From IMG/VR virus record IMGVR_UViG_3300010938_000009, positions 40,284 through 104,283 of that record: DNA of 64,000 bases. One strand, given 5' to 3'. Below the pieces are notes generated by a model, which worked only from the letters and a program-made list of their open reading frames with translations, searched no databases and was not told the origin of the DNA. Below are positions 39,501 to 48,280 of the stretch, piece by piece. The stretch is from a virus. Position 1 is the first letter of the stretch. Each line of letters starts with the position of its first letter. Both the position numbers and the translations under genes were made by a program.

Positions 39501-40901
39501 CCAATTACCCCGAAGTTATAATAGTATTAGATATGATGCTATTAGAACCTTATGAACCTACCGAATTAGAAAAACTACTCTATTCTTAATCTTATGCTAA
39601 CTTTCCTTAAAATATTTTATAATACAGGTCTAGGTATATTTTACGCTGTAAATAAACTTATTTCTATTAAAAATTACTTTAAATTTCAAATACTTAGGTT
39701 ATTTTATTATATATTAATAAAAACTAAGGGTAAAGCTTTTCCTGAATTTAAAACTGGAGAATATTGTTTTTATTTAGATAGAGATAAAAAAGAACTTATT
39801 CCTGTTGAAATATTAGATTTACGTTGGGAATATAATGAAAACTATGAAATCTACGTTAAAGGTAATTATAAAAATCTTATAGGTTACTATATAAAAGATT
39901 TAAAAATAACTAATAATAGTCAATTATGGGGTAAATTAGCCTACCCTTACGACTTATTAAAAATAAACGACGAAGAACTAATAGATATACTAAAAACTCT
40001 GTATAAAAGGGATTAATGTTTAAAAAAGGCGATTTCATTCACCCTATAGAAGAACAGGTAGAAGCTTTAATAACTACGGGCAAAAGTCAGTATATTCTAC
40101 TTTTCGGGCCTAAAAATATATTTATAGTTCACAGTTTTAATAAATGGCACTTGATATTTCAGTATTTAGATGATAAAACGACTTATATTGAAGGTTTATA
40201 TACTAAGTTCAAACTAGTAGAAGACCCAACTCAATTAGAACTACTACAGGCGTTATATGGACAAGATTACTAAAAGATACGGAGAATACCAAGGCACTAT
40301 TTACGAAATCGTAGGTTACGGTTATTGTAGATTTTGTACTCCTGGTAATGAAAGTCTTTACGAAGGAAATGTTCTGTGTTTTCAACTAAAACCTCTTATT
40401 AGAACTAACCCTAAATCTATTACTACAACTACTACTTATCATGTAAGTGGTGATGCTGTTAGTCATACTGCTACTTATTATCCTAATAGTTCTTTCTACG
40501 TAGAAGAGACTTCAGTTACTGAAATAGAAGACCCTTCTACTATAGAGGCTCTTAACGTATTATATAACCTATAATAACTCTAATAACAAGTATAACCTTT
40601 TATGCATATACAACTAATGTATGAAATGATGGAAGCTGTGTACGATACCTACAAAGATGTAGAAAATACTAGCTTACTAAAGTTTCCTATAAATACTACT
40701 AATACTATAAAAGATTTTAATATAGACGATCATGCTATATGTTGTTATAGTATAGGTAATTACGTTATAGTAGGTTATAATGTAAATAAGTTAGTAGTTC
40801 GTAATATAGAGAAAGGTTATCTTGTTTGCATTTCTCCACGTTTTTTAAAAGTGGTTGAGGACAAAACAGAGCTTTTTAAAGCTATTTACGGTAAAAAGTA
40901 A
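36510..40901 (+). CDS. array of 14 small ORFs, each with a C-terminal xLY motif (36510, 36898, 37296, 37643, 37971, 38263, 38483, 38834, 39093, 39317, 39594, 40016, 40257, 40602)
   Basis: Translationally coupled 76-140 aa ORFs; several have a (F/Y)KxGD SH3/KOW-like start; all carry E/D-L-x-x-x-L-Y near the C-terminus. Confidence 0.75.
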
Positions 40902-45183: not shown

Positions 45184-45251
45184 CCTCATAATAAGATACA
45201 CGATGGACAGTAGAGCTGTTCGACCTGTTCCTTGAGAGGAAAGGAGGAAAA

Positions 45252-48200
45252 TTGAGTTTTAACCTAGGCGTGTCTAATCATCCAACGAGTAGATTAGGCG
45301 GATTAAGTTCTGTAGGGATTTATCTTTACGAAGATATTTACTATAGACAGTGGATCAGTGAGATCGCCTTGGCCTTTTATGAAGGTGAATATATCGGCCT
45401 TCGCTTTAAGTAATTAAAGAGTTATGATGCGACAAGACGAATTAAGATAAGTTCGTCGGTAACGAAAGTTACAAAAATAATATAAATAACCACAAAATGT
45501 TATCTGGTTAGACTTAGAGTAAGACAGTTTCGTAATCCTGAGAAAATTTAAAAACTGTTTACTGAGTCTCTAAAATGGGGTGAATTGCTGGAAACTCCTA
45601 AAACTCACATAGCTACAAAGTAAATCGAAAGATTAAGCTTGACATGCTAGAGAATATGTGAGATACTCCTTAAAAGGTGTAATGGATAATCAGCAGCTAA
45701 GCGTAGTAGGGTTTAAGTTACTGCGAAAGTTCAACGACTAGAAGGTGAGTCCCAACAATAAGTCCTTCCTGAGAGTGCCCGATCCTGACCGAGTAAAGTC
45801 GAAGGATAAGATATAGTCTACTCCTATTTGAAAAAAGAGGTATATGATTAACGTAAAAAAATTAAAAAGTTCCGAATTAGATTCCGCCATATATGGTATG
45901 ATTCTAGGTGATGGATGTATACAAATGGCTAGTTCTGGAAAAGGAAATAGCAATTTAAAAATAGGACATTCAATAAAACAAGAAGAGTATTTAAAATGGA
46001 AACAAGAGATTGTAAATCAAATTGGAACGGTAAAAACTAGATTTTGGTATTATCAAAAACAAAACGCTTGTTATATAGAAACCAACACTAGAAACTACTT
46101 TACTAAATTAGAAAAAATATTTTATATTAACAGAAAAAAAACTATTAATAAAAAAATATTGAATAAATTAACAGATTTATCTTTAGCTATATGGTTTTTA
46201 GATAATGGTTATATGAGTTATAATAAATCTGGTTCTGTTTACGGAGAACTCTGTACAGATCAATTTAGTTTAGAAAAAGTACAATTAATAAAAGATTGGT
46301 TTAAAATTAAATTTAATATGGAAGTTGGTATTAGAACTTTACGATATTTAAGCGGCAAACAAAAAGATACTATAGCTTATAGAATAAAGTTTAACAAAGA
46401 AAACTGTATTAAATTAACAGAAATAATTAAACCTTATGTTAATCAAGTGAGTTGTATGCACTATAAATTATACGAGAATAAAATTGCTTCTCAGGCAGTA
46501 GAGAAATCTTCTGTGCAAAAATCTGTTATTGAAGCAACAGATACTACCACTTAATCTTACTAAAGAGATTATAGATGAAACCTCTATACTATATAGAGAA
46601 GATCCTATATATCAAGTAGTAGATGATAAGGGTAAGATATTAAAAAAAGATCAAGAATTATGGGAGCAAATCCAAAAGGATTCTCGCTACTTGACCTTTA
46701 TGGACAAACTTGATAGATGGGTACGACTACTAGGTACCGTACTAGTTAAAGTTTCTTTTGTAGATCCGCAGACTGGACTACTAGTAGATAAAAATAAAGA
46801 AGGTACTGTACAACTGGATATGCTACATGGCGGCGTATACGATATAAGACATGGAGCTTCTCCCTACTATATTACAGAATTACTTATAGGTTTTGGCACT
46901 AAATTTGGAGGATTCAGAGAAAGATCTGGAACTCAAATTATAGGCGGATCACTTACAGGTAAATTACCTGATCCTAGTAGTATGGGGCAAGCCGACATAA
47001 AAACACGACAACGAATTGATTCTCCAGGACAATTAGGTTCAGTTAATAGAATTTATTGGAGTGCTCACTCACATTACGTTGAGGACGAAGATAGTAAGTA
47101 TTACGAAACTAAAAATCCTTATGGAATAATTCCTGCTGTGCCGTTTTTTAATCAAGACCCAGCTCACTATTACTTTTTACCAATTAATGAACCTCTTATT
47201 TACGCTAATCATGCGACTAATATGAGGATTACAGATTTGAATCATATTGCTAAGTTTCAATCGTTTGGAGTACCTGTAGTAAGTGGTATCGAAAGACCTA
47301 CTTCACTAAGACAAGGTAGACCTGTAGACGATTTTAACGTATTAAAAGGTGGTACAGCTCAATCTAGATTTGGTGGAATTAGTGGTTTTGGAGCTAACGG
47401 ACAATTTAGAACCTTTGACCAAGGTTTAGGAGTAACAAGAGATGGAAACGCTGATGCTAATGCATTAGGTTTTTCTATTGGACCTGATACTGCTATAGCT
47501 GTTGGAGAAAAAGGGGATTTTAGATTTGAACACCCTTCTGCAGATATTACAGGCTTAATTAAGGTTATACATAGTATAACTGATATGGTTAGAATTAACC
47601 ACGGATTAAGACCTAAATATGAAAATACATTACCTTCATCAGGTTTTGCATTATTAATGGAGAAGATTGGTGTTATAGAAAATAATATTAGAAGAGGTAA
47701 ACTCTTTAAAGAAAGAGAAGAACAACTTTTCAATGTTATTAAGAATTTGTGGAATGTACATCATAATAAATCAGGAAGTAAAAGGTTTTCTGAAAAAGCT
47801 AAGTTAATTATAACTTACGTTAATCCTAAATTTCCAGTTGACCCTAAAACTGAAAAAGAAGATATTATGATGGAAAGTAAAATAGTAGAAACTGGAGACA
47901 GAGCTGCTATTAAAAGAATGTATCCACACATAAAAGAACCAGAAATAGATAAATTAATTATACAAGCAAGAAAAGATAAAGAAGAAAGATCCTTATTTGA
48001 AGCTGAACTTCAAGCCAAGGTTACTGAGATTATAGGACCTAAAGAAGATCCTAAAAATCCTGGAGCTAAACATAAATATTTAAGAAAATCTAAAGAAGCA
48101 GAAAGCGACAAAGAAACTTATATTTATGAAGACGAAGACGGAAAAGAAAAAGAAGTCAAAAGATTAGATAAGAGTAAGGAAAAACTAGGTAAGCCTAAGA

Positions 48201-48280
48201 TCGATAATAAAGCAAAACACGCTGAAGAAAGTTCTAAGCAACCTGGTAAAAATGGTGATCCAAGAAGAAAAGAGGAGTAA
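45252..48280 (+). CDS. portal protein, spliced from 5 exons (45252-45386, 45430-45442, 45500-45515, 45518-45542, 46532-48280; ~645 aa)
   Basis: AGGAGG SD + TTG start. The joined exons read ...ALAFYEG-RQDEFIWLDLVRQFRNPE-KQQILPLNLTKEIIDETSILY. Exon 5 has SPP1-like portal motifs (NPYGIIPAVPF, SGFALL). Position after terL. Confidence 0.8.
45387..45429 (+). ncRNA. core-less group I-like mini-intron A (43 nt)
   Basis: P1 GAAGGU/GCCUUC with U.G at the 5' site, P10 CGA/UCG, CUUUAA-GUAA-UUAAAG hairpin, terminal G. Confidence 0.7.
45443..45499 (+). ncRNA. core-less group I-like mini-intron B (57 nt)
   Basis: P1 GACGAAU/GUUCGUC with U.G, P10 UUAUCU/AGAUAA, GUAAC-GAAA-GUUAC hairpin, terminal G. Confidence 0.75.
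45543..46531 (+). mobile_element. group I intron (IA-like) carrying a LAGLIDADG ORF
   Basis: P GAAUUGCUGGAAA (45582), Q AAUCAGCAG (45688), R GUUCAACGACUA (45729), S AAGAUAUAGUC (45808), P7.1 GAAGG/CCUUC. Exact ends could shift 3 nt (45546-46534) with the same protein product. Confidence 0.88.
45844..46554 (+). CDS. intron-encoded LAGLIDADG homing endonuclease/maturase
   Basis: IYGMILGDGCI and LAIWFLDNGY motifs. Confidence 0.88.
   Translation: MINVKKLKSSELDSAIYGMILGDGCIQMASSGKGNSNLKIGHSIKQEEYLKWKQEIVNQIGTVKTRFWYYQKQNACYIETNTRNYFTKLEKIFYINRKKTINKKILNKLTDLSLAIWFLDNGYMSYNKSGSVYGELCTDQFSLEKVQLIKDWFKIKFNMEVGIRTLRYLSGKQKDTIAYRIKFNKENCIKLTEIIKPYVNQVSCMHYKLYENKIASQAVEKSSVQKSVIEATDTTT

Follow-up and report, generated by a model that had tools for sequence, protein, structure and literature searches.

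Organization of the portal locus

The stretch analyzed here (the window) comprises 64,000 nucleotides (nt) of the IMG/VR virus record IMGVR_UViG_3300010938_000009 (positions 40,284 to 104,283) and contains a portal gene interrupted by a large group I intron. Near the 3' end of that intron, behind the catalytic core and the intron-encoded open reading frame (ORF), lies a 12-nt element, TTGCTTCTCAGG, which probably acts as the internal guide (P1 and P10) for the intron's own excision. The source record is a 104-kb phage with terminal repeats and a CheckV completeness of 56%. At the locus, TerL is followed by small ORFs and then by an ORF of 583 amino acids (aa; 46529-48280), for which 304 homologs were found, mostly 620-650 aa long, a few of them matching Pfam PF05133 (portal, SPP1 Gp6-like). 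The homologs start MSFNLG...AFYEG-RQDEF-IWLDL-VRQFRNPE-KQQILP, and the intact ones read ...FRNPE/KQQILP... across the position of the large intron. In the window, the N-terminal part of the portal is encoded in separate pieces, the gene as a whole comprising the following five:

45252 to 45386, + strand: portal exon 1, from a TTG start to AFYEG, collinear with intact homologs
45430 to 45442, + strand: exon 2, RQDE and the first base of a Phe codon; the 13 letters between the joint sides in the X2 contig (see below)
45500 to 45515, + strand: exon 3, the last 2 bases of the Phe codon, IWLD, and the first 2 bases of a Leu codon
45518 to 45542, + strand: exon 4, the last base of the Leu codon and VRQFRNPE; it ends in 6 nt, CCTGAG, that make up the 5' half of the 3' guide's target
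46532 to 48280, + strand: portal exon 5, KQQILP..., the part with the 304 homologs

When joined, the 5 pieces give a stop-free frame of 645 aa that is collinear with the homologs; 82 of its first 90 residues match P0002 without a gap. Retention of the 43-nt (A), 57-nt (B), or 2-nt (AG) element between the first 4 pieces leads to a stop by codon 57. Searches of the portal pieces against PHROGs and Pfam gave no match, and neither did a tblastn search of the portal against INPHARED phages.

The fourth interruption is the large intron, which has the following parts:

45543 to 46531, + strand: large group I intron, 989 nt; RF00028, 57.7 bits; ends set by the protein frame and terminal G46531
45576 to 45841, + strand: catalytic core P3-P9, with P4 UGCUGG, P7 GACUA/UAGUC, J8/7 AAGAUA, and L9 GAAA, from the Rfam alignment
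45844 to 46554, + strand: LAGLIDADG_2 homing-endonuclease ORF (Pfam PF03161, E = 8e-34), crossing the 3' module
46484 to 46495, + strand: 3'-terminal guide, UUGCUU (P10 with exon 5) and CUCAGG (P1 with exon 4)
46496 to 46513, + strand: P2-like hairpin with a GAAA loop, 6 of 7 pairs covarying across 8 introns
46514 to 46531, + strand: tail of 18 nt with terminal G46531; all 7 complete introns end in G
46521 to 46542, + strand: hairpin with the 3' splice site in its loop, in the minimum free energy (MFE) fold; kept in L147, partly in L015, not in the others

A group I core is present: in a search of a 381-nt stretch, the full RF00028 model matched positions 45522-45840 with 57.7 bits (E = 3e-14; cut-off, 50 bits), the single match in the whole 104-kb genome, and relatives score 75.8-81.5 bits. 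P3, P6, P8, and the stem after P7 covary among relatives. An Rfam scan of the whole 64-kb window at the gathering threshold returned nothing, and a 3-kb scan with E up to 10 returned nothing relevant. The core thus scores above the gathering cut-off in 381 nt yet is missed in longer scans, and filters can conceal such introns in routine annotation; gene callers, for their part, give only the 583-aa portal fragment. The endonuclease ORF continues past the guide and its hairpin to a stop codon 20 nt inside exon 5; it is therefore complete on unspliced RNA only.

A probable guide at the 3' end of the large intron

As the preliminary description of this locus had claimed, TTGCTTCTCAGG is the exact reverse complement of CCTGAG (45537-42) joined to AAGCAA (46532-37), the two halves being 989 nt apart. 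CCTGAG-AAGCAA is the junction required for rebuilding the portal frame. The element occurs once in the window when both strands are searched with one mismatch allowed, and none of 1000 shuffles of the intron matched the junction as well as the real guide does. The sole match lies 942 nt into the intron; no complement of CCTGAG was found between 45543 and P3. Two features expected of group I introns accompany the element, namely, a terminal G (G46531) and a P10 pairing with the 3' exon (AAGCAA/UUGCUU) on the same guide.

Directly 3' of the guide lies the GAAA-capped hairpin CAGTAGA-GAAA-TCTTCTG, which has one internal U.U. The same module of a guide and a GNRA hairpin is carried by mini-introns A and B, again in agreement with the earlier reading of the sequence. 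The further hairpin that had been proposed across the 3' splice site, ATCTGTT (46521-27) with AACAGAT (46536-42), is present in the MFE fold.

Conservation of the layout in related phages

Portal loci from IMG/VR and metagenomes fall into 3 kinds: intron-less loci, loci with a canonical full-size intron at AFYEG/RQDEF (L003, L005, and L006), and loci with a large intron at NPE/KQQ. The last kind includes 6 complete relatives, L015 (= L016), L017, L106, L113 (= L155), L147, and L154, which are 64-72% identical to the intron of the window, as well as the 5'-truncated L123. In the pattern scan of metagenomes, 10 of the 13 matches were unrelated DNA. The introns at NPE/KQQ have a common order of parts: 5' site, linker of 19-55 nt, P3-P9 core, LAGLIDADG ORF, guide, GNRA hairpin, tail, and terminal G, the last lying 26-49 nt past the guide in the 7 complete introns, that is, after a tail of 15-36 nt following the hairpin. 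For the 5' exon of the intron itself, no partner in P1 could be read in the linker of 19-55 nt that separates the 5' site from P3, the region in which the canonical members of the family that were read have a P1 hairpin directly before P3. The relocation of the guide, first suggested by the window alone, is supported by all 7 complete portal introns having a guide and a GNRA hairpin at their 3' ends, by compensatory changes, and by covariation of the hairpin.

The junctions and guides of 4 relatives, with the number of shuffles that matched as well, are as follows:

L017: junction AACCCU/GAAAAACAA, guide UUGUUUUUUGGGGUU, 0 of 1000 shuffles
L113: junction AAUCCU/GAAAAACAA, guide ...GGGAUU, 0 of 1000 shuffles
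L147: junction CCAGAG/AAGCAA, guide AUGCUUCUCUGG, 1 of 1000 shuffles
L015: junction CCAGAA/AAA, guide UUUCUCUGG, 55 of 1000 shuffles

Exon and guide change together both between the window and L147 (CCUGAG/CUCAGG versus CCAGAG/CUCUGG) and between L017 and L113 (AACCCU/GGGGUU versus AAUCCU/GGGAUU). The helices of L017 and L113 contain G.U pairs, which places the pairing in sense-strand RNA rather than in a DNA inverted repeat. In the hairpin that follows the guide, 6 of the 7 pairs covary among 8 introns, with the loop GAAA in 6, GUAA in 1, and AAAA in 1. The endonuclease ORF of the relatives stops just before the guide, which is noncoding there; coding can thus not explain why the guide is conserved.

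The 5' splice-site pair and its register

Nearly all group I introns have a U.G wobble at the 5' splice site. Such a wobble is found at mini-introns A and B and at the AG site but not at the large intron of the window. In the 7 complete large introns, the pairs at the 5' site are the following:

G-C: window (G45542-C46490) and L147
A.C: L015
A-U: L106 and L154
U.G: L017 and L113

The noncanonical 5' site pointed out in the preliminary description is thus a fact of the sequence and recurs, the pair being other than U.G in 5 of 7 introns and U.G in 2. Its placement is constant: in all 7 complete introns, P1 consists of 6 base pairs (bp) counted from the hairpin, and the splice-site pair is the sixth.

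Judged from the sequence, the 5' cut most likely follows G45542, forming the G-C pair. Since the intron and exon 5 both begin with AA, cuts at positions 45542-45544 yield identical mRNA, a point in favor of other registers. The preliminary description had allowed for one shifted by 3 nt, with the cut after A45545 opposite C46487 (an A.C pair, as at the site of L015) and terminal G46534; an insertion point as in L106 and L154 (after GAGAA) belongs to the same group of possibilities. The 3-nt shift is formally possible, but it would lengthen P1 to 9 bp in the window, against the rule of 6 bp in 7 of 7 introns, and would put Asn in place of a conserved Lys in L147, the closest relative, whereas registers +1 and +2 would leave an intron ending in A. 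The cut after G45542 is favored because it keeps both the constant 6-bp P1 and the Lys in L147, and we consider a different register or insertion point unlikely. Cuts after U45539 or U45515 with direct joining to exon 5 were rejected, as they break the frame or remove conserved residues.

The canonical guide slot and the core-less elements

The upstream part of the locus contains a second guide and the 3 short elements that interrupt exons 1 to 4:

45552 to 45569, + strand: canonical-slot guide, immediately 5' of P3, AAACUGU-UUACU-G-AGUCU
45516 to 45517, + strand: 2-nt AG insert (putative micro-intron), frame-breaking, with a stop at codon 57 when retained, bulged between P1-like and P10-like helices
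45387 to 45429, + strand: mini-intron A, 43 nt, with guide TCG-GCCTTC, GUAA hairpin, and terminal G
45443 to 45499, + strand: mini-intron B, 57 nt, with guide GATAA-GTTCGTC, GAAA hairpin, and terminal G

Canonical members of the family hold their P1 guide in the slot occupied by 45552-45569. In the window, this segment pairs with AGACUU (45510-15, U45515.G45564) and with AGUAA and ACAGUUU (45518-30), in a duplex of -17.4 kcal/mol that 1 of 500 shuffles equaled, and a pairing of the linker with the upstream exon better than in shuffles is found in 7 of 7 loci. The AG insert, located 27 nt upstream of the 5' site of the large intron, lies between these pairings: G45517 is placed as a terminal G, and the P10 AGUAA/UUACU is extended by ACAGUUU/AAACUGU. 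Trans-excision splicing uses this configuration, in which a single guide supplies both P1, at a U site, and P10 and the last base to be removed is G; most likely the guide in the canonical slot brackets AG and directs its excision. The canonical slot is thus kept, with a second guide located at the 3' end of the intron. A counterpart of AG is found in L154 (8377-8382, reverse-complement coordinates), where the homologous exon region carries a 6-nt insert, AAAAUG, located 3 nt farther downstream, for which the same slot holds a matching guide. Both inserts follow a U, end in G, and are flanked by P1-like and P10-like helices, and we regard them as candidate natural micro-introns.

In mini-intron A, the guide forms P1 with GAAGGU (U.G at U45386) and P10 with CGA; full-size canonical introns occupy the same site in L003, L005, and L006. 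Mini-intron B has its U.G at U45442 and a fold z score of -3.5. Translational bypassing was rejected as an explanation of the 43-, 57-, and 2-nt gaps, as matched take-off and landing codons are lacking and a guide, a U.G, and a terminal G accompany every gap, and a -1 frameshift at UUA-GAG was rejected for the 2-nt gap, as there is no slippery site and the shift adds a residue absent from every homolog.

All carriers of mini- or micro-introns also hold the large intron. In an unbiased IMG/VR sample of portal loci, such elements were present in 2 of 3 carriers of the large intron and in none of the ~17 remaining loci. When IMG/VR was scanned by pattern for more mini-introns at the AFYEG site, the only one returned was L049, which is the contig of L017. 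At that site, L017 has a 35-nt mini-intron (2939-2973) that equals the 5'-terminal ~30 nt of the L003-type intron with a few further bases added and looks as if it had been derived from a canonical intron by deletion of the core. A third mini-intron site, RQWI/TEIAL, is occupied in L147 (6545-6580, 36 nt) and L154 (8280-8313, 34 nt; both in reverse-complement coordinates); the guide UCUGUA-G-UCCACU fits AGUGGAU/UACAGA, and excision restores the frame.

Several further observations concern the intron family as a whole. The core is part of a large phage family, an 18-mer of it occurring in 94 IMG/VR stretches, and is ~80% identical over 74 nt to unannotated stretches in genomes of Staphylococcus Twort-like phages. 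One of these, in Staphylococcus phage Stau2 (L119, 1485-1920), is a group I-like core ~80% identical to 45580-45655; it directly follows a coding sequence (CDS), which may extend past the core, and precedes a gene annotated as "transposase," with a P1 hairpin readable upstream. Intron-dense regions of the same family are found in L034 (911-3711; 4 RF00028 matches within 2.8 kb) and in L127 (1-3034; 4 RF00028 matches beside a cluster of 4 tRNA genes). In the canonical introns at AFYEG/RQDEF, the endonuclease ORF lies between P7 and P3' (L003, 3030-3946; L005 and L006, 3075-3946).

A contig lacking the short elements

Three sequencing runs were examined; each covers a small share of the stretch, and none is listed as RNA. 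One contig, X2 (257 nt, depth 8.9), comes from a library labeled "RNA-Seq cDNA." It reads 45209-45386, the 13 nt of exon 2, and then 45500-45565 minus AG, so that A, B, and AG are missing precisely at the joints that had been predicted and 23 nt from the start of the large intron are retained; it bears on these joints and not on that between exons 4 and 5. X2 differs from the window at 3 positions, 2 of which are shared with X1, a contig from a second run (possibly DNA) that still has AG and, in part, B. A diverged intron-less allele is an unlikely source of X2 because there is a single difference across exons 2-4, and X2 is, in our judgment, probably spliced RNA. A loose end in the X2 run, before window position 45580, belongs to a related wastewater intron in which a GAAA-capped hairpin, GAUAGUA-GAAA-UACUUUC, lies 12 nt 5' of P3. 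This looks like the canonical guide-P2-core arrangement, which could have given rise to the rear-mounted module.

Proposed splicing scheme and alternative explanations

We propose that CUCAGG pairs with the final 6 bases of exon 4 and UUGCUU with the first 6 of exon 5, so that both splice sites, 989 nt apart, would be held adjacent on one helix docking into the genome's single group I core. The large intron would then be a guide-hairpin-G module of the A and B type, with a ribozyme and its endonuclease gene occupying the space from the 5' splice site to the guide, and AG removal directed by the canonical-slot guide would represent engineered trans-excision splicing in a natural form. A tandem duplication followed by two deletions could have permuted a canonical guide-P2-core intron into this form. 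The wider proposal, that the single core reads 4 guide modules on one transcript and performs 4 excisions in turn (43 nt, 57 nt, AG, and itself), tolerating pairs other than U.G, seems to us evenly balanced between true and false. If the core does serve the other elements, its own removal last would be the simplest order, although the excised intron could still act in trans. That the large intron leaves last had been put forward as a possibility in the preliminary description; X2, which lacks A, B, and AG yet keeps the 5' end of the large intron, agrees with such an order, but it is a single contig from a run guessed to be DNA.

Several observations weigh against a rear-mounted catalytic guide. 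The junction of exons 4 and 5 is predicted from the sequence; the run that yielded X2 was guessed to be "probably DNA" by the sequencing-run look-up and has no cover across 45841-46800, from the endonuclease ORF onward. The G-C pair at the 5' site (A.C or A-U in relatives) means that the helix might align the exons without defining the cut, and that splicing may be slow or require help. Among the relatives, the guide match of L015 is marginal (55 of 1000 shuffles), and in L106 and L154 the P10 half requires a bulge, the ungapped match being not significant. Finally, in the window itself the guide sits within the extended endonuclease ORF.

Some of these points suit an alternative in which the 3' element is a functional pairing other than the catalytic P1, tethering or aligning the exons (as an extended guide or a P10/P9.0 helper) or hiding the splice sites, with the cut being set by other contacts, by a protein such as a LAGLIDADG maturase, or by hydrolysis. 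This would accommodate the 5 of 7 introns without a U.G at the splice site and the canonical slot that, in 7 of 7 loci, holds another guide pairing with the upstream exon; moreover, additional guide pairings raise the efficiency of engineered ribozymes (PMC6155759). However, a mere tether leaves unexplained the strict placement of the splice-site pair, always sixth from the hairpin, the matching 3' site having its terminal G, as well as the textbook U.G of L017 and L113 at that very position, and no other candidate for P1 was found; we consider it unlikely, somewhat more so than a shifted register. More improbable still is a decaying gene or an unspliced large intron in which the complementarity is a functionless relic of an ancestral arrangement. 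A gene with a 2-nt frameshift and four interruptions, a record of 56% completeness, and a 3' junction without RNA cover count in its favor, but a second portal gene was not noticed, the alignment of the pieces with the homologs is perfectly collinear, diverged phages keep the layout and show compensatory changes, and the 2-nt insert recurs in a second run and is paralleled in L154 by a 6-nt insert that has a fitting guide of its own. A last alternative is chance, a coding constraint, or a DNA-level feature, for instance the homing site copied in inverted form. It was suggested by the location of the 12-mer inside an ORF, by the AT-richness of the region, where short matches are common, and by a crude screen of 94 introns of the family for other rear-mounted guides, which, being without power, gave 29 matches against ~24 in shuffles. 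The comparative data bring this last possibility close to refutation: the real score was reached by none of 1000 shuffles, the guide is noncoding in relatives, exon and guide covary, and in DNA, or if the opposite strand were read, the G.U pairs of L017 and L113 would count as mismatches.

Comparison with known systems

A textbook group I intron has one guide, at its 5' end, and is cut after a U.G pair. Reviews place the internal guide close to the intron's 5' end, where it forms P1 with the 5' exon (PMC3984707); here, the slot at the 5' end pairs with another, upstream site. The large intron resembles canonical phage group I introns, such as those of L003, L005, and L006 and members of the family located in other phage genes, in its P3-P9 core, P7 and J8/7, terminal G, P1 and P10 on one guide, LAGLIDADG ORF, and membership in the same sequence family. 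In contrast to those introns, in which the guide directly precedes P3, the guide for its own junction lies after the core and the ORF, the slot before P3 is aimed elsewhere, and the pair at the 5' site is G-C. Natural self-splicing introns with a non-textbook order of parts include the back-splicing coral ND5-717 intron (PMC6545197) and circularly permuted group II introns (PMC8637638). In these, however, the order of exons or domains is permuted and RNA circles are formed, whereas here the exon order is normal, the 3' site does not lie upstream of the 5' site, the exons join linearly, and only the P1-P2 module has moved 3' of the core. The "degenerate" group I introns of fungal rDNA (Phialophora PaSSU, 63-75 nt; PMC3160393) are, like A and B, very short and have P1, P10, and a terminal G, but they are said to retain P7 and to splice alone in vitro, whereas A and B lack P7 and occur here only beside a full core. 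In the literature on mini-introns, core-less or satellite introns, and naturally permuted group I introns, we found no description of the present layout.

If the proposal is correct, a P1-P2 substrate module can be detached from its core and sited elsewhere, one core can serve several guides, and segments down to 2 nt can be excised from a natural mRNA, which would amount to frameshift repair at the RNA level. Such principles have so far been confined to engineered ribozymes (trans-excision splicing, spliceozymes, and guides in trans). A natural example would offer a compact system for relating P1 docking to connectivity and to the wobble pair and would show a route by which introns lose their cores yet survive. 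Among the engineered systems, the Azoarcus ribozyme with a guide supplied in trans (PMC2709566) likewise recognizes P1 without a guide joined to the 5' end of the core, but it does so in vitro, with a 3-nt guide and separate fragments, and is not a natural intron. In the trans-excision-splicing ribozymes of the Testa lab (PMC2532722) and the spliceozymes (PMC4094466, PMC6155759), a core excises a core-less segment that ends in G by means of P1 and P10 on one guide. Trans-excision splicing removes segments down to 1 nt (PMC2532722), which parallels the 2-nt AG and mini-introns A and B. Those ribozymes are laboratory constructs acting in trans, whereas here all the parts lie on one natural transcript, from which the ribozyme would finally also remove itself.

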